The notes under the pieces were generated by a model that did not search any database, had not been told where the DNA came from, and worked only from the letters and a program-made list of their open reading frames with translations. A stretch of 41,826 bases of DNA from Minisyncoccota bacterium. Lineage in GTDB: Bacteria > Patescibacteriota > Minisyncoccia > Phycocordibacterales > JACOZG01. Position numbers and translations under genes: made by a program. The number at the start of each line of letters is the position of its first letter. The stretch's first letter is position 1. The DNA lies in contig DATDVJ010000037.1 in NCBI GenBank assembly GCA_036517595.1, positions 1 through 41,826 of the forward strand. The letters are read 5' to 3'. This document shows positions 4,672-41,023 of this stretch, in pieces.

Positions 4672-5585
4672 ATGGCTTGTTTGTCCCCTAAAAATTGCAA
4701 ACTGAAAATCACCCTGATTATTTTTTGTCTTAGCCTTCTTTCCTTTCCACTTCTGGCCTCCGCCACCACCGTCTTCATCACCTCTGGCACCAGCTGGACC
4801 GTGCCGAGTGATTGGACGAATACCAACACGATCGAAGTCATCGGGGGTGCAGGGGGGGGTAGCAAATACGGTGATGGAGGTGGGGGGGCGTATGCCAAAA
4901 TTTCCAATCTCACGACACTCACCCGCGGTGGATCGGTGACGATTCAAATTGGCCAAGGCGGTCCTGGTGGTAACAGTAACGGTGGTAATGGCACCGATAC
5001 ATATTTTAACGGTTCAGGCACAACTTGTTCTGACCAATCAGTTTGTGCCGAAAATGGAGTTAGGGGGTCAAACTTTACTAGTGGGAATGGTGGCGCTGGT
5101 GGTGAATATAATGATCCTAATTACGGTGGTGCTGGTGGCGGTGGTGGTAATGGTGGTGGTACCGCGGGAGCTAATGGTGCCGTCGGTGCTCCCGGTAGTA
5201 GGCCAGGTGGGGCTGGAGGTAATAATAGTTTAGGGTTTGGCGGTGGAACTGGCGGTACCAGTGGTGCTGGTGGTGCCGGTAGCAAAGGTGGTGGTGGTGG
5301 TGGTGCCTCTTTTAATAATGGTGTTGTTGGCTATACCGGTAGTGTTGGTGGTGCTGGCATTGAATGGGATTCTACTCACGGTTCCGGCGGGGGGGGAGTG
5401 GTTCATCGAACTGTAGTGGTGGTGCCACTGGCGGTGGTGGGGCCTTATATGGCGGTGGCGGTGGTGGTGGTTGTAATTTGGGTGGGGCTGGAGCCGCCGG
5501 GATCATTGTCGTCACCTACGCGCCGGAGAAGACGCGCGTTATTCGCCTGCACGGGGTGCGTCTCGACGGGGTCCGATTGCAATAG
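4672..5585 (+). CDS. Secreted glycine-rich repeat protein, interrupted by a frameshift in a G8 tract (pseudogene or phase-variable)
   Basis: Signal peptide, then the FITSGTSWTVPSDWTNTNTIEVIGGAGGG motif and long GGxGG repeats. The frame from 4672 is homologous to the paralogue only up to GIEWDSTHGSGGGG. After the G run at 5389-5396, homology continues in the frame of ORF 5364..5585 (..ALYGGGGGGG..GIIVVTYAPEKTRVIRLHGVRLDGVRLQ*). Confidence 0.7.
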
Positions 5586-5696
5586 TTTTACTGTCAAGGA
5601 CAGTCCTTGACAGTGGTCCTAATGAAAGGATGCGGTCTTTCTTTTTCATCAAAAACCTCACTCTTAAAGTATTTACGACCGTACGAACTTTAAGAG

Positions 5697-6020
5697 TTAA
5701 ACCAACTTCTGTAGTTCCTTTTTGAGTATCGGAATATCGGTGACGATCGTATCCCAAACGACATCCAAATCAATTTCGAAATAATTGTGAATGGCTTGAT
5801 CTCTGAAGCCAGCGATGTCCTTCCATGGTAGATTTACTAATTCTTTTGTTTTAGAAGAAACTTTTTTGGCTACTTCGCCGATGAGTGTCAGTTGCATAAT
5901 TATCGCGCTTTGGGTCTTGGTATCGACAATAAATTTTTCTCTATCCAAACCATTGACAAAAGATTCAATCTTAGCGACGGACTCTAATATTTGCTGGATG
6001 TACACAACATCATCCTTCAT
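5697..6020 (-). CDS. hepT: HepT-like (DUF86, HEPN) toxin
   Basis: 107 aa with the RxxxxH HEPN motif in FRDQAIHNYFEIDLD. Overlaps the upstream nucleotidyltransferase gene by 11 nt. Confidence 0.85.
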   Translation of the reverse strand: MKDDVVYIQQILESVAKIESFVNGLDREKFIVDTKTQSAIIMQLTLIGEVAKKVSSKTKELVNLPWKDIAGFRDQAIHNYFEIDLDVVWDTIVTDIPILKKELQKLV

Positions 6021-6320: not shown

Positions 6321-6674
6321 CTATTTGGTCAGAGTCACGCTCTCCACAATCCGTCGGAAAGTCGCAGGTTCATGTCCAGCGAGATCGGCGAGAATTTTGC
6401 GATCAAGTTCGACGCTATTTTTTTTCAGCAGGCCCATGAAGTGACTGTAGGAAAAACCGAGTGGCCGGACGGCAGCATTGATTTTCACTTGCCACAGTGC
6501 TCGCGCGCCGCGCTTCTTCTCGCGGCGATGGCGGAAGGCGTGCGCGCCAGCGTGAAGCAGGGCAGTTTTCGCCTCGCGTTCCTTCTTGCTTCGGCCGAAG
6601 CGGTAACCCTTAACTTGTTTAAGGACGCGCCGGCGATGTTTCGTGGCGATTGTCCCTCTTTTAACTCGTGGCAT
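6321..6674 (-). CDS. rplT: 50S ribosomal protein L20
   Basis: MPRVKRGTIATKHRRRVLKQVKGYRFGRSK; last gene of the infC-rpmI-rplT operon. Confidence 0.95.
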   Translation of the reverse strand: MPRVKRGTIATKHRRRVLKQVKGYRFGRSKKEREAKTALLHAGAHAFRHRREKKRGARALWQVKINAAVRPLGFSYSHFMGLLKKNSVELDRKILADLAGHEPATFRRIVESVTLTK

Positions 6675-11337: not shown

Positions 11338-12344
11338 CCAAGGTCGCTGTTTTCGGTTACGAATCATGGGAGCGCGAGTATCTGGCCGAGCACACGCCGG
11401 CGGGGGCCGAGTTAATCTTTTTCGACCAATCACTCACTCCTGACAAATTGGTTCTCGACGCTGATTTTGAAATTTTGGTCGTGTTTGTCGGCTCACAGAT
11501 CGACGAAGTGGTGTTGGCGAACTTTCCTAAAGTGCGGGCGATTATCACTCGCTCGACGGGTTATGATCATATTGATTTGGCCAGTTGTCGCACACGGGGG
11601 ATCACTGTTTCGAATGTACCCGGCTACGGTGAGGCGACGGTGGCTGAATACACTTTTGCTCTTCTCCTCTCGCTCTCGCGGAAGATTTATCTGGGCTATC
11701 ATCAAGTGAGAGAGTCGGGTAGTTTCAGTGTGACCAACTTGCGCGGTTTTGACCTTGAGGGAAAGACGATCGGAGTGGTGGGAACAGGACGGATCGGTCG
11801 GCATGTCGCGCGCCTCGCGCGCGGTTTCGGGTTGAAAATAATTGCTCATGATACTCACCCCGACGAAGAGTTTGCGAAATCATTTGGTCTCACTTATCGT
11901 TCGCTCCCCGAGCTTCTGGGAGAAAGTGATATCATCACTCTTCATGTGCCGGCTTTGCCCGAGACGGAACACTTGTTAAACGCGGTTACTTTTTCCCAAA
12001 TGAAGCGCGGAGCAGTACTCATCAATACCAGCCGGGGGAGCATTATTGATACCCAGGCTTTAGTGTTGGCGTTACGGTCGGGGCAAGTGGCCGGCGCGGC
12101 TCTCGATGTGCTTGAAGAAGAGGGGGTGGTTCGCGATGAGTTGGATTTCTTAGTCAGTGGTCATCCTGGAGAACATAATTTAAAAACCGTGTTGGCTAAT
12201 CATGTTCTGATTGATTTGCCGAATGTGATTGTGACACCACATAACGCTTTCAATACTGTCGAAGCGCTCCGACGGATTCTCGACACGACCCTTGAGAATC
12301 TCCGTGGTGTTATTGATGGTAAGCCCATTAATGTAATTCCATGA
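11334..12344 (+). CDS. D-isomer-specific 2-hydroxyacid dehydrogenase (glycerate/lactate dehydrogenase type)
   Basis: NAD-binding GVVGTGRIGRHVA, the catalytic region INTSRG...LDV..EE, and the C-terminal VTPHNAF. Confidence 0.85.
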   Translation: MTKVAVFGYESWEREYLAEHTPAGAELIFFDQSLTPDKLVLDADFEILVVFVGSQIDEVVLANFPKVRAIITRSTGYDHIDLASCRTRGITVSNVPGYGEATVAEYTFALLLSLSRKIYLGYHQVRESGSFSVTNLRGFDLEGKTIGVVGTGRIGRHVARLARGFGLKIIAHDTHPDEEFAKSFGLTYRSLPELLGESDIITLHVPALPETEHLLNAVTFSQMKRGAVLINTSRGSIIDTQALVLALRSGQVAGAALDVLEEEGVVRDELDFLVSGHPGEHNLKTVLANHVLIDLPNVIVTPHNAFNTVEALRRILDTTLENLRGVIDGKPINVIP

Positions 12345-13516
12345 TCGAACAACTAACCGCTCGTTCGATTCTCGATTCGCGGGGCGAGTGGACAATTGAA
12401 GTCGCGCTGACGGCGCTTGGTCACCGGGCCGTGGCTTCCGTGCCTCAAGGCGAGAGCCGGGGTGAGCATGAAGCAGTGGCGGTGCTAGCGGAGACGGCGG
12501 TTGAGAATGTAATTGAAATTATTGCTCCGGTCGTGCGTGGACTGGAACTCGGCAAACAAATTGAATTCGACGAGAAGATAAGAAGTTTGGACGGCACGAC
12601 TAATAAATCTCACCTTGGCGGGAATGCTCTGCTTGCCACTTCAATCGTGTATGCTCGTCTCTCAGCGTTGGTGATGGGAGTGCCCCTCTGGCGATATTTG
12701 CGTCAACTTTCTCAGCTTGAGGGTAAGCCCACTCGACCCCCGCGGCTTCTGTCACTGATGATCGAGGGCGGTCTTCATGCCGACGGTGGATCGCCGTTCC
12801 AAGAATATCTGGTTTTACCTAAAGTGGAGACAATTGCTGAAGCGGTGGCGACGGTGACGAAACTCTACGGCACTGTACGAGAGATTGTGAGGGAGCGTTT
12901 TGGTCCAACTGCTACTCATTTAGGTGATGAGGGCGCCTTTGCTTTACCGCTCACTAATCCTCTTACTCCCTTTGCTCTAATAATGGAAGCGATCGAGGAT
13001 GCCGGATTAGTTGGCAAGTTCGATGTCGGTCTCGATGTTGCGGCTGATAATGTGAGTTTAAGCCCCGAAGAATTAATTGTTCTTTACGATCAGATGCGAG
13101 CTGATTATTCGGTTTGTTATCTCGAAGATCCATTTAATGAGAATGATTTGGATCACTTCGCGGCGCTCTTAATCAAGTGGGAAGGGGGGGTGGCGATTGT
13201 TGGCGACGATTTGACCGTCACCAATGTTGGACGAATGGAATTAGCCAAAGTGAAAAAAAGTATCAACGCGATGATCGTGAAGCCGAATCAAATTGGAACA
13301 GTGAGTGAGACGCTGGAAGCTGTTGCCCGAGCGCGCGAGTATGGGTGGAAGATTTTCGTTTCTCATCGTGGACGGGAGACCAACGATGATTTCATCGCCG
13401 ACCTCGCTTGGGGAGTGGGCGCGGATGGGATCAAGCTCGGCGCTCCCGCGCGTGGTGAGCGCGTAGCGAAGTATAATCGTTTGCTGGAGATTGAGACAAG
13501 GGAGAATACAGATTAG
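12341..13516 (+). CDS. eno: Enolase (compact, 391 aa)
   Basis: ILDSRGEWTIEV, DVGLDVAADN, YLEDPFNEND, IVGDDLTVTN, IVKPNQIGTVSET, SHRGRETNDDFIADLAWG, IKLGAPARGERVAKYNRLLEIE. The metal and catalytic residue contexts are present, but SHRSGETED is replaced by SHRGRETNDD. Confidence 0.9.
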   Translation: MIEQLTARSILDSRGEWTIEVALTALGHRAVASVPQGESRGEHEAVAVLAETAVENVIEIIAPVVRGLELGKQIEFDEKIRSLDGTTNKSHLGGNALLATSIVYARLSALVMGVPLWRYLRQLSQLEGKPTRPPRLLSLMIEGGLHADGGSPFQEYLVLPKVETIAEAVATVTKLYGTVREIVRERFGPTATHLGDEGAFALPLTNPLTPFALIMEAIEDAGLVGKFDVGLDVAADNVSLSPEELIVLYDQMRADYSVCYLEDPFNENDLDHFAALLIKWEGGVAIVGDDLTVTNVGRMELAKVKKSINAMIVKPNQIGTVSETLEAVARAREYGWKIFVSHRGRETNDDFIADLAWGVGADGIKLGAPARGERVAKYNRLLEIETRENTD

Positions 13517-13545: not shown

Positions 13546-13564
13546 GCCAGCGCGAAGCGCTGGC
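13546..13564. terminator. Bidirectional intrinsic terminator between convergent genes
   Basis: GCCAGCGC-gaa-GCGCTGGC, with an A run on the left (a T run on the minus strand) and GATTT on the right. Confidence 0.6.
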
Positions 13565-13888: not shown

Positions 13889-13976
13889 TTATTGTCTCCT
13901 TTGTTAAACCAAAAAGATCAGGTTCTACAGACACTAGTTTGAAACTAGCATGATTGTGTCTGTCCGGTCAATTTTT

Positions 13977-14386
13977 TGGAGATGGCGGGAATCGAACCCG
14001 CGTGCAAGGAGGATTAGGTTGTGCGTCTACGCGCGTAGCCGGCTTCGAGCACCGGTTGCCCCGATGCGTCTTGGTGAATAATGTCGAGAGCCGACGAAAT
14101 TATTATTCACCACAGTCTCATTATTTCAACCAATCGCCGAGACACGCGACGGCCTATTCCGAAAGATTATTACACCCGTTACTCCCTAACAGAATTCAAG
14201 AGCACGGACGCCAGCTTGGGGTCGCCGTTAGGCGAGAGCGAAAGCTGGAGCGAAAGCGCCCGCGAAGGACGCTTTCGCCTTAGAGAATAAGTTGGCACTT
14301 ATTCAGGTGCTAAAAGTTTAGCGAGGTTTTAGCAAACTCGGCGCGCACAGTGACCGCATCACTCCATGTCTATGCCGATCATCCCC
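13977..14386 (-). ncRNA. ssrA: tmRNA (SsrA)
   Basis: On the minus strand, the 5' GGGGATGATCGGCATAGAC pairs with the 3' ..GCGGGTTCGATTCCCGCCATCTCCA. Acceptor stem GGGGATG/CATCTCC contains the G3:U pair. T-arm GGGTTCGATTCCC. Tag ORF at 14228..14278: GCG AAA GCG TCC TTC GCG GGC GCT TTC GCT CCA GCT TTC GCT CTC GCC TAA = AKASFAGAFAPAFALA*. CCA is not encoded. smpB is adjacent. Confidence 0.9.
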
Positions 14387-14918: not shown

Positions 14919-16865
14919 ATGTCCAAGAAACGTCAACCGGTAGGTGGCAATCCAGTCGGCGGGCCAGTAAATCGCCAAGATATTTGGAAGCAATTTAGTC
15001 GGCAGATTGTCGGTGCTTTGTTGATCCTCCTCGCGCTGATCGGAGTCTATACCGTCTCCACCGAGAGTGATCGAGCGATCCCCGAGGTCTCACTCTCTCA
15101 ATTGGCGGAAGATATTATTCTGGAGAAGGTCGAGACGATCAAGGTTCAAGGCGACCAACTGGAGATTATTTATCAAGGCGGCGAAGTGAAGCGTTCACAG
15201 AAGGAAGTCGAAGCTTCACTCATTCAGACTCTCACTGTCTATGGCGTGTCGCCTGCAGTTTTAAGTCGAGTAGATGTGGCGATTGAATCACCAAGTGGTT
15301 TCGGCTTCTGGCTCGCTAATTTGTTACCGATTCTCCTGCCGGTTTTTTTCGTCATCTTCATTTTTTGGATGATCTCGCGGCAGGTGCGCGGGGCTTCGAT
15401 GCAGGCTTTCACCTTCGGTCAATCTCGGGCGCGGATTATTGATCCGGCCGACACTAAACAACGCATCACCTTCAAGGATGTGGCTGGCGTTCGCGAAGCC
15501 AAGGAAGAGCTGTTGGAGATTGTTGATTTCTTGAAGAGCCCGAAGAAATTTCTCGACATTGGGGCGAAAATCCCCAAGGGAGTGCTCCTCATGGGGCCAC
15601 CCGGAACGGGGAAGACTTTGCTCGCCCGCGCAGTGGCTGGTGAAGCGGCGGTGCCCTTCTTCCATCTTTCGGGGTCGGAGTTCGTGGAGATGTTTGTCGG
15701 TGTTGGCGCGTCGCGCGTGCGCGATCTTTTCAAATTAGCCAAAAAGGCGGCGCCGGCCATTGTCTTTATTGATGAGATTGACGCTATTGGCCGCCATCGT
15801 GGTTCGGGTCTTGGTGGCGGTAATGATGAACGTGAGCAAACCCTCAACCAAATTCTTGTCGAGATGGATGGCTTCGAACCGACTGAGAAATTGATCGTGA
15901 TGGCGGCGACGAATCGGCCGGATGTGCTCGATCCAGCCTTGCTCCGACCCGGGCGCTTCGATCGGCGAATAGTGCTCGATAAGCCCGATCTTCGTGATCG
16001 CGAGGAGATTCTTCAGATCTATGCCCGAGAGAAACCCTTTGCTGAAGATGTTAATTTGCGCACAATTGCCGAGCGCACCCCCGGTTTCTCCGGCGCCGAT
16101 CTCGCCAACATTATGAATGAGGGGGCGATTCTCGCCGCGCGGGAGAATCGGAAGCGCGTGAGCCAATACGATCTCATTCGTTCGGTCGAGAAAGTGATGC
16201 TTGGCCCCGAGCGCCGCAGCCACATTCTCTCCGATAAAGAGAAACGAATCACGGCTTATCACGAGATTGGTCACGCGCTGATTGCCTCAGTTTTACCCCA
16301 TGCCGATCCAGTGCACAAGGTCTCGATTATCTCGCGTGGTCACGCCGCTGGTTATACGCTCAAACTCCCCCTCGAAGATCGGAAATTGGAGTCGCGCAAG
16401 GAATTCCTCGATGACATTGCTGTCTCGCTTGGCGGTTACGCCGCCGAGATGCTGATCTTTGGTGATATCACCACTGGCGCCTCCAACGATATTGGTGTCG
16501 CGACGGCCGTTGCCCGCAACATGGTGACGAAGTACGGGATGAGTGATAAGTTAGGTCCGATCGCGTTCGACGGCGCCACCCAGCGGCTCTGGAGCGGTTA
16601 CGGCACGGTCTCGGAGAAGTATTCATCGGAAGAAGTCTCGGCGGCGATTGATCGGGAAGTGTCGGAGATTATGCGCGCCGCGCTCGAGCGAGCGCGGGTA
16701 GCGCTCACCGAACATCGCGCCGCCCTCGATGGTCTCTCGGCCGAGCTGATTAAAGTGGAGACGCTCGAGCGCGCGGATTTCGAGAAGCTTCTCATTCTCC
16801 ACGGTATCAAGCCGAAGGCGAGAGAGGATAAAGTTGTCCCACCGCCAGTCATCTCGGGCGCGTAG
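14919..16865 (+). CDS. ftsH: ATP-dependent zinc metalloprotease FtsH
   Basis: Two N-terminal TM helices, AAA+ Walker [19 protein letters not shown], Walker [13 protein letters not shown], and the zinc motif HEIGHAL. Confidence 0.97.
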
Positions 16866-16929
16866 CTCAATCGGTTAGAGCACCGAGCTTATACCTCGGC
16901 GGTTCTTGGTTCGAGTCCAAGCGCGCCCA
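16856..16929 (+). tRNA. tRNA-Ile, anticodon UAU
   Basis: Manual cloverleaf: acceptor GGGCGCG/CGCGCCC, D stem GCTC/GAGC, anticodon stem CCGAG/CTCGG with loop C-T-TAT-A-C, variable loop CGGTT, T arm CTTGG-TTCGAGT-CCAAG, discriminator A, no encoded CCA. The first 10 nt overlap the end of ftsH; stop TAG at 16863-16865. Confidence 0.85.
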
Positions 16930-20470: not shown

Positions 20471-21234
20471 GTTAGACAATAAATAGGTTACCGTAGTCAG
20501 CTATGACTACGATGACAAAACACGAGGTAATCAAGGAGACTCTGAGTGAATATCTTAGAGCTGGAAAAATTGAGAAAGGTAAGATTTTGGATCGGTTAGA
20601 AGCCACCGTGCGAATGCATCGTAAGGCGATTGTTCGTTGGTTACGAGTACTCCAGTTGAGGCGGGTCGGCTGGAATTGGAATGACGAACGCGGTCGAAAA
20701 GTTTACTACACCGCCGATGTGACCGAAGCGCTACGCAACGTTTGGAACATTGCTCACGAATTGTGCGCCGAGAGATTACACGCCATCATCGGCGAATAGG
20801 TGAACGTCTTGCAGAGAGATAATGACTGGTCGTTCAATGATGAAATCACCGGCAAACTTCCTGAAGTTTGCCGGGTACATCCACATCGAGACCGACGAGA
20901 GATTGGAGAAACTCCGAGCCGTGTGTCGACCACTCGAGGTGTACATCAATCACTTCTTGCCGTCGATGAAGTGCGTGAAAAAGATTCGCTACAACATCAA
21001 CCATTCATCGAGAAAGTACGATGTGCCGAAGACACCGTATCAGCGATTGATGGAGCACGCCAAGATACCCGCTGGAGTCAAGGCGAAGCTGAAAAACTTC
21101 CACGAGACGCTTAATCCAAAAACTTTGCACGATGAAATTTTGCCGGCGAGAAGAGAACTCTTTCGGGGGGCAAAATTTACTAAAAGTGATATAATCTAAA
21201 GACTGATTTCGGTAACACTTAATTATTGTCTAAC
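20471..21234 (+). mobile_element. Internally deleted insertion sequence with retained terminal inverted repeats
   Basis: IRL GTTAGACAATAAATAGGTTACCG (20471-20493) matches the reverse complement of IRR (21210-21234), GTTAGACAATAATTAAGTGTTACCG. The 12 outer nt are identical and both share the inner TTACCG. Only transposase N- and C-terminal remnants lie between them. Confidence 0.6.
20503..21199 (+). pseudogene. DDE (rve-type) transposase remnant lacking the catalytic core
   Basis: The N-terminal HTH part (..ILDRLEATVRMHRKAIVRWL..LCAERLHAIIGE) ends at an in-frame TAG (20797-20799). After a frame change near 20866, the C-terminal part follows (FAGYIHIETDERLEKL..YINHFLPSMK..YDVPKTPYQRLMEH..LNPKTL). 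There are only ~230 codons in total, and no D-D-E region is visible. Confidence 0.55.
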
Positions 21235-26955: not shown

Positions 26956-29095
26956 TATTTGCTGTAATAATACTTCTGCGTTCATAAACTTCGCGCGCCT
27001 TCGCGCCGTCACCCGGGCCGATCATCTTCCTCTCCTCAAGCATATCGAGCAACCGCGCGGCGCGAGCGTAACCAACCTTGAGCCGCCGTTGAAGGAAGGA
27101 GGCCGAAGCCTTACCGCTCTCCATCACCAATTCTCGCGCTTCCTCGTAGAGTGGATCATCGGTATTATCACCTTCGTCATTATCATCAATTGTTATTCCG
27201 CCCTCGCCCATGATGATCTCATCGGTTAGTTCATCGCCGTAATGAGTGATGAGCCATTTCACCACCTCTTTGACCTCGCGTTCCGAAATGAAGGCCGATT
27301 GGAGGCGAAGCGGTTTCGACATGTCGCCAGCCAAATAGAGCATGTCGCCAGCCCCTAGGAGTTTTTCCGCGCCGGCCATATCAAGAATAGTGCGCGAGTC
27401 AATGTGAGAAGCCACTTGGAGAGCAATGCGCGAGGGGATATTAGCTTTAATGAGACCGGTGATAACTTCAACTGATGGTCGTTGAGTGGAGAGAATGAGG
27501 TGGATGCCGACGGCGCGTGACATTTGCGCCAGGCGAACGATAGCCGCTTCGAGTTCGCGGGGGTAAGTGGCCATGATGTCGGCGAGTTCATCAATGATGA
27601 TTACAATGTAGGGTAGACTCTCCAGCGCCTCATTGGCTTGCGTTTTGCGTTTTTCACTCTGCATTTCTAGGTGATACGTTTGGATGTCGCGCACGGCGTG
27701 TTTTTCGAGCACGGTGTACCGACGTTCCATTTCTTTGATTGCCCACCTAAGAGTGAGAATTGCTTTCTTTGGATCGGTGATCACTGGCGTGAGGAGATGG
27801 GGAGTTTTGTTGTAGATTGTCAGTTCGACTCGTTTCGGATCAATCATAATGAAACGGAGAGTCTCCGGAGAATTGCGATAGAGAAGGGAGACAATGAAGG
27901 TATGGATGACGACTGATTTCCCGGAGCCGGTGGCGCCGGCGATCAGGAAGTGCGGCGCTTTGGCAAGATTGCCGAAGTGTGCTGGTCCCGAGATCCCCCG
28001 ACCTAAAGAGACGAGAAGTGAATGAGGTGATTCGGTAAATTGGGTAGCTGTAAGTAGGGAAGCCAAGCCGACCATTGACTTAGTGCTGTTGGGGATCTCG
28101 ATCCCGACGAGTGATCGGCCGGGGATTGGCGCTTCGATCCGCAAGGGGTGGGCGGCCAGCGCCAGAGCCAAATCATTTTGGAGAGCGACGATGCGCGAGA
28201 GCTTGACGCCTTCGGCCGGTTTGAGCGCGTAGCGGGTGATGGAGGGGCCGATCGAAACTTCATCCATCTCGACAATGATACTAAAGTTTTGAAGCGTGCG
28301 TTTGATGATGGTCGTGTTGGCCTTAATATCGCCAGCCCCGGGTTTGCCCGCATCTCGTTCCAAGAGAGAGACCGGCGGGGCCTCAAAGACATTAGTCTGT
28401 CGTCTGGCGATTTTGCCGATCAGCGCACCGAAGCCCGCTCCGACCGCTTCTTCGTCGTCGTTGGACGCCACGCTTCCAATTGGAAGCGTGGCGTCCAATT
28501 CTTCTTGGGCACTCTTAATTCTAAGTGTTTTAATTGGCAATGATGCCTCGCCGATAATTGTGGGGAGGTTTTCTTTTTTCCGCCACCGCCACCACTTGTT
28601 GATTGGTCGACCGAAGAGTGTCCACTTCAAAGTGAAGGTGGTATCGAAAATGATAAGAGCCGCAATTACCATCACTGCCGCCAAGAAAATCACGCTAGCG
28701 TAGACGTCAAAAAATTTAATGAGCGGGAGAGAGATAAGCCAACCAATACTCCCACCGGCTTGGTTACCCAAATCATCGAAGAGGATGCTGATTAGGCCAA
28801 GCGAGCTGATGAAAAGAATTAGACCACCGAAGAGGCGACCACCGATGATATTCGGCCGAACTGGTCTAAGGAAGGAGATTCCCAGAAGAATTAAACAGAG
28901 GGGGAAGAGGAAGTAGCCATAGCCGAATACTGACACCCCGACGCGATAAACAATTCTTCCGGCCGCACCGGCGACTCCAGCACTCGATAGCAGGAGAAAC
29001 AACGCTAGAACTAATAGGACAATTCCTAAAACACCCTGTTTAGTTTCGTCCTTGAGATCAAGTCGTTTTTTTTTCGGCTCGGCTGTTTTTTTCAT
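26921..29095 (-). CDS. ftsK: DNA translocase FtsK/SpoIIIE
   Basis: N-terminal multi-TM domain, linker, motor domain with PHFLIAGATGSGKS (Walker A) and IIIDELAD, and a C-terminal gamma winged helix (SASFLQRRLKVGYARAARLLDMLE). Confidence 0.93.
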   Translation of the reverse strand: MKKTAEPKKKRLDLKDETKQGVLGIVLLVLALFLLLSSAGVAGAAGRIVYRVGVSVFGYGYFLFPLCLILLGISFLRPVRPNIIGGRLFGGLILFISSLGLISILFDDLGNQAGGSIGWLISLPLIKFFDVYASVIFLAAVMVIAALIIFDTTFTLKWTLFGRPINKWWRWRKKENLPTIIGEASLPIKTLRIKSAQEELDATLPIGSVASNDDEEAVGAGFGALIGKIARRQTNVFEAPPVSLLERDAGKPGAGDIKANTTIIKRTLQNFSIIVEMDEVSIGPSITRYALKPAEGVKLSRIVALQNDLALALAAHPLRIEAPIPGRSLVGIEIPNSTKSMVGLASLLTATQFTESPHSLLVSLGRGISGPAHFGNLAKAPHFLIAGATGSGKSVVIHTFIVSLLYRNSPETLRFIMIDPKRVELTIYNKTPHLLTPVITDPKKAILTLRWAIKEMERRYTVLEKHAVRDIQTYHLEMQSEKRKTQANEALESLPYIVIIIDELADIMATYPRELEAAIVRLAQMSRAVGIHLILSTQRPSVEVITGLIKANIPSRIALQVASHIDSRTILDMAGAEKLLGAGDMLYLAGDMSKPLRLQSAFISEREVKEVVKWLITHYGDELTDEIIMGEGGITIDDNDEGDNTDDPLYEEARELVMESGKASASFLQRRLKVGYARAARLLDMLEERKMIGPGDGAKAREVYERRSIITANNGHDEFNSSAN
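28461..28498. repeat. 38-bp perfect palindrome (class A, core GCTTCCAATTGGAAGC) inside the ftsK linker
   Basis: TTGGACGCCACGCTTCCAA|TTGGAAGCGTGGCGTCCAA, checked base by base. Read in the ftsK frame it gives DATLPIGSVAS. Confidence 0.95.
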
Positions 29096-29162: not shown

Positions 29163-29197
29163 TAGACATTCACTCTGTCCTATATATAATATAGGAC
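29163..29197 (+). promoter_or_regulatory. Candidate promoter (TAGACA-16-TATAAT) overlapped by the inverted repeat GTCCTATAT-ata-ATATAGGAC
   Basis: TAGACA at 29163-29168, TATAAT at 29185-29190. The 9-bp-arm inverted repeat spans 29177-29197 and abuts ATG 29198, so there is no room for a Shine-Dalgarno sequence. Confidence 0.45.
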
Positions 29198-29920
29198 ATG
29201 TTTGAGACAAAACAGCAAAAGGACACAAATTCTGTATTGGACATAAAGGACAGCATAAAAGACAGAGCCAATAAACTCGTAGCGGCGATGTATCTAGTCA
29301 CTAATTTTCTTGATGATCTAGACCAAATTAAATGGAAGTTAAGACATAAATCTCTCGATCTGAAGGTTAACTTAACACTCGGTGTTAAAGATGCTCCAAC
29401 ACCGAGTGTTTGGCCGATTGAAACAATTTTGTCCGATATAGCCGAGATTATTTCTCTGATTGATATCGCTGTCCTTGATCGGCGAGCGTCAGCGATGAAT
29501 TTCTCCATTCTTCGTCAGGGATATGTTGATTTGCAAACGGAATCTGAGAATTATATCAATGGTGATTGGTATAAAGAAGCTTGGCTTCCAATTGGAAGCC
29601 AAGCTTCTCTCGCCGGCGCCAGGAAAGAAGTTAAGCTTCCAATTGGAAGCTTAACTTCGCCAAATAAAACCGCCAAACTAGGTCAAAATCAGCGTAAAGA
29701 CGCCACGCTTCCAATTGGAAGCGTGGCGTCCAGCAGCCCCCGCCGGGAGAAAATCGTTGATTTCATCAAGCAACACGATTGGTCATCAATCAAAGAAATT
29801 GCTAAATCCATCACCGAAGTTAGCAGTAAAACTGTCCAACGAGAATTATCTGAATTGGTCCGAATGGGGAAATTGAAGAAAACTGGCGAACGTCGTTGGA
29901 GTCGATATAGCTCGAATTAG
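29198..29920 (+). CDS. Hypothetical protein with a C-terminal winged-helix (DeoR/MarR-like) HTH and a palindrome-rich linker
   Basis: The C-terminal REKIVDFIKQHDWSSIKEIAKSITEVSSKTVQRELSELVRMGKLKKTGERRWSRY looks like a wHTH. The central linker contains three LPIGS palindromes. Confidence 0.6.
   Translation: MFETKQQKDTNSVLDIKDSIKDRANKLVAAMYLVTNFLDDLDQIKWKLRHKSLDLKVNLTLGVKDAPTPSVWPIETILSDIAEIISLIDIAVLDRRASAMNFSILRQGYVDLQTESENYINGDWYKEAWLPIGSQASLAGARKEVKLPIGSLTSPNKTAKLGQNQRKDATLPIGSVASSSPRREKIVDFIKQHDWSSIKEIAKSITEVSSKTVQRELSELVRMGKLKKTGERRWSRYSSN
29575..29608. repeat. 34-bp perfect palindrome (class A)
   Basis: AGAAGCTTGGCTTCCAATTGGAAGCCAAGCTTCT; translated as EAWLPIGSQAS. Confidence 0.95.
29627..29658. 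repeat. 32-bp perfect palindrome (class A)
   Basis: GAAGTTAAGCTTCCAATTGGAAGCTTAACTTC; translated as EVKLPIGSLTS. Confidence 0.95.
29699..29730. repeat. 32-bp perfect palindrome (class A), same sequence as the ftsK copy
   Basis: GACGCCACGCTTCCAATTGGAAGCGTGGCGTC; translated as DATLPIGSVAS. About 34 nt are identical to 28464-28497. Confidence 0.95.
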
Positions 29921-32497: not shown

Positions 32498-32533
32498 AAA
32501 AACCCCCTAATCCCTAACGGGACGGGGGTTTTT
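32498..32533 (+). terminator. Rho-independent terminator
   Basis: AAAAACCCCC..TCCC-taac-GGGA..GGGGGTTTTT. Confidence 0.7.
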
Positions 32534-32567
32534 GTGTGCTCTCTATCTCCACTCATTCTCACCACCC

Positions 32568-32592
32568 CACTTGGAAGCGAAGCTTCCAAGTG
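32568..32592. repeat. REP-like hairpin (class B): CACTTGGAAGC-gaa-GCTTCCAAGTG
   Basis: 11-bp arms and a 3-nt loop. Ends 13 nt upstream of the transposase ATG. Confidence 0.9.
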
Positions 32593-32605
32593 TTAAAATA
32601 AACTG

Positions 32606-33292
32606 ATGCGGAAAATCGCCTTCGTTAATCAGGAGTTCTATCATATTTATAATCGAGGGGTTGACAAACGCGCCATCTTCTCGGATAGCTATGACTTGCA
32701 ACGACTCTACCAAAGTTTCCAAGATTTTAATTCTCTCGAGCCGATTGGTAGTATCTACGAGCTGTCCTTTTCTCCTCCCGAAAGGCACTTGGAAGCTTCG
32801 CTTCCAAGTGCCAAAAAATTAGTGCGGATTATTTGTTATGCCTTAAATCCAAACCATTATCATCTACTTCTTCAGCAAGAAACAGATAAAGGGATTGAGA
32901 AATTCATGCATCGTGTGGGGACTGGTTTCACTAAGTATTTCAATCATCGTTACAAACGAACAGGCGCTTTATTCCAGGGTGTATTTAAGGCGAGGCATAT
33001 TCAGGATAATAACGACTTACTTCACTTGAGCGCTTATATCAATCTTAACAACAAAGCTCATACGTTGAGAGCAGGAAATAATAATTATCAATCCGCTCTA
33101 GCGCGAACGAGTTGGAATGAGTACGAGCGAAGTGCCACTGGAATTTGCGAAAAAAGTATTATTCTTGAACAATTCTCTGGGGCAGAAGAATATTCTCGGT
33201 TTTGTAGCGAAGCTTTTCAGTTGATTGCTGAAAGAAAACGATCTTCACCCCTCGATTCTTTCGACTTGGAAGCGAAGCTTCCAAGTGATTGA
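32606..33292 (+). CDS. IS200/IS605-type Y1 (HUH) transposase, REP-associated tyrosine transposase (RAYT)-like
   Basis: EFYHIYNRGVDKRAIF, HUH motif in ALNPNHYHLLLQQ, FNHRYKRTGALFQGVFKARHI, and the probable catalytic Tyr in LLHLSAYINLN. Flanked by class B hairpins. Confidence 0.8.
   Translation: MRKIAFVNQEFYHIYNRGVDKRAIFSDSYDLQRLYQSFQDFNSLEPIGSIYELSFSPPERHLEASLPSAKKLVRIICYALNPNHYHLLLQQETDKGIEKFMHRVGTGFTKYFNHRYKRTGALFQGVFKARHIQDNNDLLHLSAYINLNNKAHTLRAGNNNYQSALARTSWNEYERSATGICEKSIILEQFSGAEEYSRFCSEAFQLIAERKRSSPLDSFDLEAKLPSD
32784..32812. repeat. REP-like hairpin (class B, inverted orientation) inside the transposase ORF
   Basis: GGCACTTGGAAGC-ttc-GCTTCCAAGTGCC with 13-bp arms. The loop is the complement of the loop in the flanking copies. 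Translated as RHLEASLPSA. Confidence 0.9.
33264..33286. repeat. REP-like hairpin (class B) at the 3' end of the transposase ORF
   Basis: ACTTGGAAGC-gaa-GCTTCCAAGT. Translated as DLEAKLPSD, followed by the stop codon. Confidence 0.9.
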
Positions 33293-40758: not shown

Positions 40759-40998
40759 ATGGCTAAGGGGTTATCTAATTGGGGTTACCAAGATGTTGCC
40801 GATTTCCTCAAGGAACACGGATTTGAATTTCTGGAATATCGCAAGGGTTCGCACGAGGCATGGCTTAATCGAGAGACTAACGCCGTGGTGGAAATAAATG
40901 TTCACACTTCGAAAAGTTTCGCGATCCGAACACTGGAAACGATGATTCGCCAGTCAAAAATTGATAAGAAAACATGGCGCGAATGGACCACGCGTTAG
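40759..40998 (+). CDS. HicA/YcfA-like toxin
   Basis: MAKGLSNWGYQDVADFLKEHGFEFLEYRKGSHEAW..INVHTSKSFAIRTLETMIRQSKI. GSH motif and size fit HicA. Confidence 0.6.
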   Translation: MAKGLSNWGYQDVADFLKEHGFEFLEYRKGSHEAWLNRETNAVVEINVHTSKSFAIRTLETMIRQSKIDKKTWREWTTR

Positions 40999-41000
40999 TA

Positions 41001-41023
41001 ACTTGGAAGTCCGACTTCCAAGT
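41001..41023. repeat. REP-like hairpin (class B variant): ACTTGGAAGT-ccg-ACTTCCAAGT
   Basis: 10-bp arms with a compensatory C:G to T:A change relative to the copies at 32568, 32784 and 33264. Starts 3 nt after the toxin stop codon. Confidence 0.85.

Follow-up and report, generated by a model that had tools for sequence, protein, structure and literature searches.

A RAYT-like Y1 enzyme gene of Patescibacteria and the REP-like hairpins in and around it

The gene, its product and its hairpins

The stretch of 41,826 nucleotides analysed here, positions 1 to 41,826 of contig DATDVJ010000037.1 of a Minisyncoccota bacterium, is called the window and contains on its forward strand, at 32606..33292, a gene for a protein of 228 amino acids (stop codon at 33290-33292). 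The protein resembles the RAYTs, tyrosine transposases that are associated with REPs (repetitive extragenic palindromes), and copies of one short DNA hairpin lie both beside the gene and within it. An earlier interpretation made from the letters alone, the sequence-only reading, had recognised the hallmarks of a Y1 enzyme in this open reading frame (ORF), and all of them are present. The motif YHIYNRG occupies residues 12-18; the HUH motif lies in NPNHYHLLL, with H84-Y85-H86 at 32855-32863 (H84 at 32855-32857, H86 at 32861-32863); and Tyr144, the catalytic Tyr in SAYINLN, is encoded at 33035-33037, with N148 at 33047-33049.

The assignment to the Y1 transposases is borne out by Pfam, where Y1_Tnp (PF01797) is the sole domain reported for the protein (29.9 bits against a cutoff of 23) and is matched by all 25 aligned homologues. 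In the NCBIfam scan the RAYT model was likewise matched by 25 of 25 homologues, every score lying below the cutoff, and neither an IS200-type model nor any other NCBIfam model was matched by any of them. When the AlphaFold model of the window protein (pLDDT 84.7, pTM 0.83) was compared by Foldseek, the best match in the PDB was 4ER8, the E. coli RAYT with a REP hairpin (E = 3.8e-5), followed by the TnpA structures of IS608 and ISDra2, all with probability 1.00. Sequence searches of the PDB, whether with the single protein or with a profile of 25 sequences, found no true relative, and the weak matches to RNase A that they returned are spurious. Tyr144 is placed in a helix spanning residues 135-146, and the confidence of the model is lowest in peripheral parts (pLDDT about 70 for residues 61-70, about 60 for residues 151-160, and below 50 at the C-terminus). 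These results support the view that the protein belongs with the RAYTs among the Y1 HUH enzymes and is not an IS200 TnpA. Since N83, H84, H86, Y144 and N148 are invariant across 118 sequences, the enzyme is probably active.

The three hairpins found at the gene, none of which is assigned to a strand, are perfect copies of one hairpin and correspond to the description given by the sequence-only reading. The upstream hairpin at 32568-32592 (CACTTGGAAGC-GAA-GCTTCCAAGTG, 11-bp arms) is located inside the predicted core promoter and ends 13 nt before the ATG. The internal hairpin at 32784-32812 (GGCACTTGGAAGC-TTC-GCTTCCAAGTGCC, 13-bp arms), in a position referred to below as site 1, has its loop inverted. 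Its in-frame translation is (R)HLEASLPS(A), with HLEASLPS at residues 61-68, and falls after helix alpha-1 and before the strand that carries the HUH motif. The terminal hairpin at 33264-33286 (ACTTGGAAGC-GAA-GCTTCCAAGT, 10-bp arms) covers the last codons, which are read as DLEAKLPS. A second internal position, site 2 (33062..33103, forward strand), follows the Tyr helix in the context ...NLNNKAH|TLRAGNNNYQSALAR|TSW, and here the hairpin is absent from the window gene. The pattern CTTGGAAGC-N3-GCTTCCAAG, allowing up to three mismatches, has 6 matches in the window against 0.01 expected, and the 8-mer TTGGAAGC occurs 15 times against 1.9 expected. Folded as single-stranded DNA, the hairpins reach -9.8 to -15.9 kcal/mol (z-scores -5.1 to -7.4). 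Rfam reports only a tmRNA (13974-14386, reverse strand) and a tRNA (16856-16929, forward strand) in the window and has no match at the hairpins. The gene is carried by 13 contigs from independent samples; in the six that were compared the gene region is identical, with no single-nucleotide polymorphisms and no loop flips, and the arrangement of hairpins and gene is therefore not an assembly artefact.

A consensus promoter scan places a promoter-like site at 32571..32599 on the forward strand, which consists of a -35-like TTGGAA within the hairpin, a 17-nt spacer and a TG-extended -10 element, TAAAAT. The upstream hairpin is thus predicted to occupy the -35 element and the spacer of the promoter. 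Because the -10 element ends 6 nt before the ATG, the mRNA of the RAYT-like gene is probably leaderless. The same arrangement is seen in the family: 42 of 49 genes have a TAnnnT hexamer whose last base is 5-9 nt short of the ATG, whereas random positions give 11%; hairpin and ATG are most often 14 nt apart, and the consensus 3' of the upstream hairpin is GGTATAAT. As the gene upstream has its own terminator at 32509-32538, the cassette forms a transcription unit of its own.

With the promoter in view, it may be asked whether the hairpins serve gene expression in an ordinary way (as operator or part of a promoter, as terminator or mRNA-stabilising stem-loop, or as translational pause site), owe their likeness to local gene conversion and are not substrates of the enzyme. 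The upstream copy coincides in part with a conserved promoter, at the -35 element and the spacer, the 3' copy adjoins the stop codon and was flagged as terminator-like, a further copy at 41001 (see below) likewise directly follows a stop codon, and classical REPs act as terminators and mRNA stabilisers (PMC3733652). We nevertheless regard this explanation as quite unlikely, given that the family has two copies in the middle of the coding sequence, that the 3' flank in the family shows no consistent T-run, and that Y1 HUH enzymes recognise exactly such hairpins, as seen in 4ER8 and the IS608 structures. Regulatory and substrate roles can, besides, coexist.

The hairpin unit across the family

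A search of 90% identity clusters returned 2,785 matches, nearly all named Patescibacteria; 1,031 representatives at 50% identity matched at E <= 1e-30, and at least 594 loci were found in species-representative genomes. No relatives of the gene were found on viral contigs. The bins L012, L041, L045, L058, L063, L068 and L069 also carry the gene and are labelled Gammaproteobacteria, Bdellovibrionales or Woesearchaeota; they are probably mislabelled or contaminated. A sister subfamily with the Tyr motif YIHLNP is present in the same genomes.

In the DNA of 79 genome loci the hairpin takes the form of a 23-nt unit, ACTTRG-N11-CYAAGT, whose stem measures 9-11 bp and whose loop has 5, 3 or 1 nt. 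Its four positions are fixed: some 40 nt ahead of the ATG, about +180 (site 1), about +460 (site 2) and the stop codon. Site 2 directly follows the Tyr helix (...NLNxKVH), and in most homologues the unit in the stop region starts between -1 and +6 nt from the stop codon. Perfect hairpins number at least two in 51, at least three in 41 and at least four in 20 of 66 genes, and site 2 holds a perfect one in 31 of 67 homologous genes. In the protein alignment this layout appears as the peptide (Q)LGxxxSK(L), which most homologues contain twice, some of the proteins ending in LEAKLPS. The internal segment is therefore not an interruption peculiar to the window gene, as the sequence-only reading had supposed: when homologues are aligned it is found family-wide, at two fixed internal sites, and it is palindromic at the DNA level. 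The layout is a trait of a family of about 1,000 clusters at 50% identity, almost all of them Patescibacteria, and not a local oddity. The window gene has lost the hairpin at site 2; its 76%-identical orthologue, L080, retains one there (ACCTGGAAGC-GAA-GCTTCCAAGT, read as TTWKRSFQVS). The sister subfamily has the same layout with wholly different hairpins (TGTCAAACA, ATGTCGGACAT and CGGAGATC).

Rearranged forms of the unit were also seen. At L067 a zero-loop 36-nt palindrome, ACTTAGAAACGGGGTTTC|GAAACCCCGTTTCTAAGT, lies on either side of a gene (5823-5858 and 6524-6559), and at L079 an extended hairpin with a 19-bp stem and the apex GAAGTTAAGCTTC lies upstream of the homologue (1263-1304).

Two aspects of the units are highlighted that concern their origin. 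First, the copies within a gene resemble each other far more than those of different genes: the inner 9 nt of hairpin pairs are identical in 67% of the cases within a gene and in 1.2% between genes; different genes and paralogues carry different cores and a single gene carries one core across its copies. The proteins of L002 and L014 are 85% identical and yet all four or five of their hairpins differ, which argues that the core turns over faster than the protein and that the copies of a gene turn over together; the window gene and L080 have a common hairpin. Second, imperfections are shared. In each of L052, L042 and L021 one mismatch-bearing unit is found at different sites of the single gene and in both orientations, and since the mismatches are common to both orientations, the copies are kept alike by copying and not by independent selection for pairing.

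The level at which the unit is maintained can be judged from the same comparison. Loop orientation varies freely from site to site, and the mismatches found in units comprise 16 G·T and 19 A·C pairs; because G·T is about as frequent as A·C, with no bias towards G·U wobble, and because the loops flip, a signal at the RNA level is rejected. These two properties also weigh against the hairpins as expression signals. A further proposal would be that the repeat is a protein motif (QLGSxASKL or LEAxLPS) selected for the function of the enzyme, the palindromy of the DNA being incidental. Its attraction is that most homologues have the same frame, (Q)LGxxxSK(L), at both internal sites, and that all dimer palindromes of the window, described below, read LPIGS. 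It is rejected, as a very improbable explanation, because one and the same DNA unit is translated in all three frames: as LGSxASK in most homologues, as LEASLPS at site 1 of the window gene and L080, and as TWKRSFQ at site 2 of L080. Moreover, the non-coding copies upstream and downstream are identical to the coding ones, changes in the core are strictly compensatory, with 68 distinct arms all perfectly complementary, and the encoded residues fall in peripheral segments modelled with low confidence. Comparison of the sequences thus shows the hairpins to be DNA elements, whose signal lies in the DNA and not in RNA or protein.

Solo copies and dimer palindromes

The association between hairpins and gene was counted in 1.15 Mb, made up of the loci and the window, of which 0.108 Mb lie in or around RAYT-like genes and 1.05 Mb form the remainder. 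The gene regions contain 182 units and the remainder 21, an approximately 84-fold difference in density. Among the 21 solo units, eight have the exact 11-nt core of the gene at the same locus, whereas 2,000 permutation trials gave 0.26 on average and never more than 3. This association, which the sequence-only reading had put forward as a way of judging the system, supports a specific tie between the hairpins and the RAYT-like gene.

Solo units are found in frame in ORFs that were read by eye as a YchF-like GTPase and as MnmA-like, Mur-ligase-like and HolB-like proteins. They are low-copy REP-like elements of compact genomes, which survive where they are tolerated. That identical units stand in frame, in any frame, in unrelated housekeeping genes also speaks against a role as expression signals. 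The HolB-like (DNA polymerase III delta-prime-like) ORF, at L052 (3319-4005), contains two hairpin families in frame within one reading frame, the first giving LEAELPS from ACTTGGAAGC-cga-GCTTCCAAGT and the second PMSRTVLDM from CATGTCAAGGAC-t-GTCCTTGACATG.

The window itself has a solo unit at 41001..41023 (no strand), ACTTGGAAGTC-C-GACTTCCAAGT, directly 3' of the stop codon of a small HicA-like ORF (...GSHEAWLNRE..., ending at about 40998, in the region 40760-41023). Its core, AAGTC-C-GACTT, is that of the four copies at the L005 homologue and not that of the window gene. A perfect hairpin of a second family (TGTCAA...), ACTGTCAAGGAC-a-GTCCTTGACAGT, lies at 5590-5614 at the end of ORF 4672..5610; hairpins of this family occur upstream of, inside and after genes of the sister RAYT-like subfamily at L026 (6390-7052) and L034 (7314-7973). 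The window was searched for another RAYT gene, intact or degraded, to account for its solo hairpins at 5590 and 41001, and none was found.

Four perfect palindromes of 32-38 nt in the window have the core GCTTCCAATTGGAAGC and are all read as ..LPIGS..; none is assigned to a strand. The longest (38 nt, 28461..28498) has the structure TTGGACGC-CAC-GCTTCCAA|TTGGAAGC-GTG-GCGTCCAA and is in frame as LDATLPIGSVASN in the linker between the 4TM and alpha domains of FtsK. It consists of two imperfect 19-nt hairpins (TTGGACGC-CAC-GCTTCCAA) in inverted orientation without a spacer (-23 kcal/mol), their feet trimmed to CCAA|TTGG, and so shows what defines a REPIN (a REP doublet forming a hairpin), namely two inverted units that make one long hairpin. 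The other three are located in the linker of a protein with a DeoR-type helix-turn-helix (HTH) domain: a 34-nt palindrome at 29575..29608, read as KEAWLPIGSQAS; a 32-nt palindrome at 29627..29658, read as EVKLPIGSLTS, whose outer arm GAAGTTAAGCTTC is found again in the L079 homologue's extended upstream hairpin; and a 32-nt palindrome at 29699..29730, read as DATLPIGSVAS, which is identical to the inner 32 nt of the FtsK-linker palindrome. As this 32-mer is present in two unrelated genes, it represents dispersed repeated DNA.

In the metagenome homologue L129, site 1 of the RAYT-like gene itself is occupied by a dimer palindrome, which is translated as KEAKLPIGSLAS; the dimer palindromes are therefore rearranged members of the same element family. 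The idea of the sequence-only reading that the enzyme is a candidate for the other palindromes of the window is supported by this and by the core TTGGAAGC that they have in common. When metagenomes were scanned for GCTTCCAATTGGAAGC, the matches listed were mostly A/T-flanked terminators and chance 16-mers, and among them at least a handful were true dimer palindromes (L204/L181, L129, L166 and L124).

Three other palindromic sequences of the window are recorded for completeness. A palindrome with 10-bp arms at 29176-29198, TGTCCTATAT-ATA-ATATAGGACA, abuts the ATG of the DeoR-HTH ORF (29198..29920) and looks like an operator for that regulator. A perfect hairpin with 12-bp arms at 20849-20874, CCGGCAAACTTC-ct-GAAGTTTGCCGG, lies inside ORF 20822..21199, where it is read as PANFLKFAG, and is unrelated in sequence to the other hairpin families. 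The hairpin GCCAGCGC-GAA-GCGCTGGC at 13546-13564 is found just after ORF 12341..13516.

Interpretation and comparison with known systems

The next question is whether the gene is a resident of its genome or a mobile element. All 13 contigs that carry it show one gene neighbourhood, and there is synteny with the L080 orthologue, the genes downstream encoding a PKD-domain protein, L10 and L7/L12. Several genomes have two or more copies of the family, which are divergent paralogues (about 50-69% identical) with different hairpins. The evidence points to domestication in the window lineage. Over long times the cassette has moved or been transferred, because its surroundings vary from one part of the family to another and no neighbouring gene is conserved; a search for a TnpB-like or other conserved partner gene found the commonest flanking gene cluster in only 8 of about 66 loci with the gene detected.

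It is here that an insertion sequence (IS) has to be considered. According to this explanation 32568-33286 would be an autonomous element of the IS200/IS605 type, the outer hairpins its subterminal ends and the solo hairpins remnants of excision or decay. The hairpins do lie exactly at the borders of the gene, where the outer ones could equally be described as terminal inverted repeats; the stretch in which the window and L080 are alike in their DNA reaches precisely from hairpin to hairpin; most loci differ in context and lack a conserved partner gene; and several genomes have two or more copies. An IS would, however, be expected neither at one fixed location without polymorphism in 13 contigs nor in synteny with an orthologue of 76% identity. 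The copies within a genome are old and divergent, with different hairpins, and not the near-identical copies of an IS; there is no IS200-type NCBIfam match and no copy was found on viral contigs. The protein has NHYH and YINLN in 228 amino acids, compared with DH[VI]H and Y[IV]ENQ in about 150 amino acids in class 1, and with four equivalent hairpins in one IS, excision would destroy the transposase gene. We therefore consider an IS unlikely.

We favour the interpretation that this is a domesticated gene, present in single copy, whose product is a RAYT-like Y1 HUH nuclease/transposase from a large Patescibacteria-specific clade, and that the hairpins are its cognate REP-like elements, and we assign it a probability of roughly 0.7. 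On the model of the E. coli RAYT and of IS608 TnpA, the enzyme would bind the hairpin extruded on single-stranded DNA and cut and rejoin at its foot. Cleavage might take place at AC^TTGG and CCAA^GT, as is suggested by the CCAA|TTGG junction of the dimer palindromes. The reaction would occur mostly in cis, so that the unit is copied or exchanged among sites and the enzyme's own gene, for that reason, collects copies in tolerated places such as non-coding flanks and permissive loops. The copy in the promoter probably lets the protein, or extrusion of the hairpin, control transcription of the gene itself.

Several points weigh against this interpretation. On the side of the protein, the window sequence scores 35.6 bits against the NCBIfam RAYT model (REP_Tyr_transpos equivalog), whose cutoff is 80, and its Tyr motif, YINLN(N/D)K, keeps the invariant N148 and lacks the Pro of the class 2 motif Y---NP. 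On the side of the hairpins, they do not have the 5' GTAG/GTGG guide of classical REPs, and solo units number about one per 50 kb in the 1.05 Mb of flanks, so that high-copy REP behaviour was not seen, in a census in which the window organism's own genome is represented by 41.8 kb only. Domestication has to be reconciled with the differing contexts of most loci and the want of a conserved partner. As to mechanism, binding, cleavage and the cleavage site are inferred by analogy, and homogenisation could be independent of the enzyme and local, through template switching or gene conversion between nearby palindromes; this is possible because paralogues keep separate sets of hairpins, yet near-identical proteins can differ in their sets. 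The proposal of the sequence-only reading, a RAYT-like enzyme with REP-like hairpins, is supported as regards both the enzyme and the tie of the hairpins to the gene; in their low copy number and in having no 5' GTAG/GTGG tag the hairpins are unlike classical REPs.

A bolder extension may be tentatively entertained, which treats the 23-nt palindrome as a minimal replicator housed within the gene for the very enzyme that acts on it. Working in cis on single-stranded DNA, the enzyme would, in either orientation, copy the unit or exchange it between the fixed sites of the gene's promoter, coding loops and stop region; the core would then change faster than the protein, and feedback would come from the promoter copy. 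If it were true, the family would offer direct genomic evidence for copy-and-paste of single hairpins catalysed by a RAYT. To our knowledge such copy-and-paste is unproven for any RAYT, and the cellular role of RAYTs and the mode of REP copying are unsettled.

The clade provides about 1,000 clusters at 50% identity that can serve as natural replicates, each with enzyme and hairpins within less than 0.8 kb. Because the core outpaces the protein and the copies of a gene change together, specificity and copying are open to comparative genomics and oligonucleotide assays. The copy embedded in the promoter suggests a simple autoregulatory circuit. In very compact genomes, palindromes of this kind are shown to survive mainly in coding sequence, in in-frame loops and linkers of housekeeping proteins, which makes them relevant to gene annotation and protein modelling in Patescibacteria. 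Literature searches found no paper on RAYTs of Patescibacteria or their hairpins.

The system can be compared with several that have been described. In-frame REPs inside RAYT genes, intragenic REPs and the palindromic elements of Rickettsia were already known. In subclass 2.4 of the TnpA-Y1 enzymes (Bertels group 4), the cognate REPs flank the tnpA-REP gene and also sit inside it with the frame kept (Quentin et al. 2018, PMC6006769), and for this reason the hairpin within the gene is less unusual than the sequence-only reading had claimed. Those insertions, variable in length and sequence, lie between the HUH motif and the Tyr and were interpreted as tolerated in peripheral loops; the subclass has NH[IFV]H, WQ and YIxNNP, its REPs are GT[AG]G-tagged or double-foot, and its hosts are Cyanobacteria and Bacteroidetes (PMC6006769). 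The window family resembles it in that cognate hairpins both flank the gene and lie in frame within it, and differs in having NHYH, FQ and YINLN and two fixed sites, one before the HUH motif and one after the Tyr helix.

By its motifs, the nearest counterpart of the clade appears to be subclass 2.1 (Bertels group 1; TIRYT) in the classification of Quentin et al. 2018. The likeness, which is one of motifs only, comprises NH[YF]H, FQ and Y[IV]xLN, with SS(W) further downstream, in proteins some 210-240 amino acids long; the signature of the subclass is NH[YF]H / FQ / Y[IV]HLNP / SS in about 238 amino acids, and the window motifs fit it save for the final NP. The published description of subclass 2.1 is of genes that lack REP-like structures, are bordered by long terminal inverted repeats and often encode a C-terminal HTH domain, whereas the window family has short hairpins and Pfam reports Y1_Tnp only. 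REP/RAYT biology is extended by this both to Patescibacteria and to a group resembling subclass 2.1, which had been reported without REPs.

In IS200/IS605 elements, TnpA recognises DNA hairpins that lie subterminally at either end (PMC6006769). The TnpA proteins of IS608, ISDra2 and IS200 have the same fold and catalytic motifs as the system described here, and hairpin recognition would be a further common feature. The class 1 features of about 150 amino acids, DH[VI]H, Y[IV]ENQ, multiple near-identical copies and asymmetric left and right ends are all absent from it. The palindromic elements of Rickettsia and intragenic REPs lie in frame in housekeeping genes, in linkers, and leave the proteins intact (Di Nocera et al. 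2013, PMC3733652). The copies in the FtsK and DeoR-HTH linkers and in the YchF-, MnmA-, Mur-ligase- and HolB-like ORFs are comparable to these; the present units, at 23-38 nt, are far below the Rickettsia elements in length, and there is an identifiable Y1 enzyme gene to which they are linked.

The REP/RAYT systems of E. coli (TnpA-REP RayT, 4ER8) and Pseudomonas (RAYT/REPIN) share the following with the window system: a single-Tyr Y1 HUH enzyme, which is the best structural match; a single-copy, vertically inherited gene flanked by a short palindrome that is also present elsewhere in the genome; a hairpin family of its own for each paralogue; and inverted dimers comparable to REPINs or bacterial interspersed mosaic elements (BIMEs). 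On the other hand, the window unit is fully symmetrical, with an ACTTRG foot and without a 5' GTAG/GTGG guide (the 5' flanks beside ACTTRG are CC or CA, and GTG(G) occurs solely on the 3' side, where it complements the 5' CAC). The copy number is very low, copies stand in the promoter and at fixed sites inside the gene, the host belongs to the Patescibacteria, the NCBIfam RAYT score is far below the cutoff, and the Tyr motif is YINLN(N/D) and not Y---NP. What the present family adds to the known systems is the phylum and the clade, an untagged and fully symmetrical unit, four fixed positions that include the promoter, and clear evidence for concerted evolution driven by copying.

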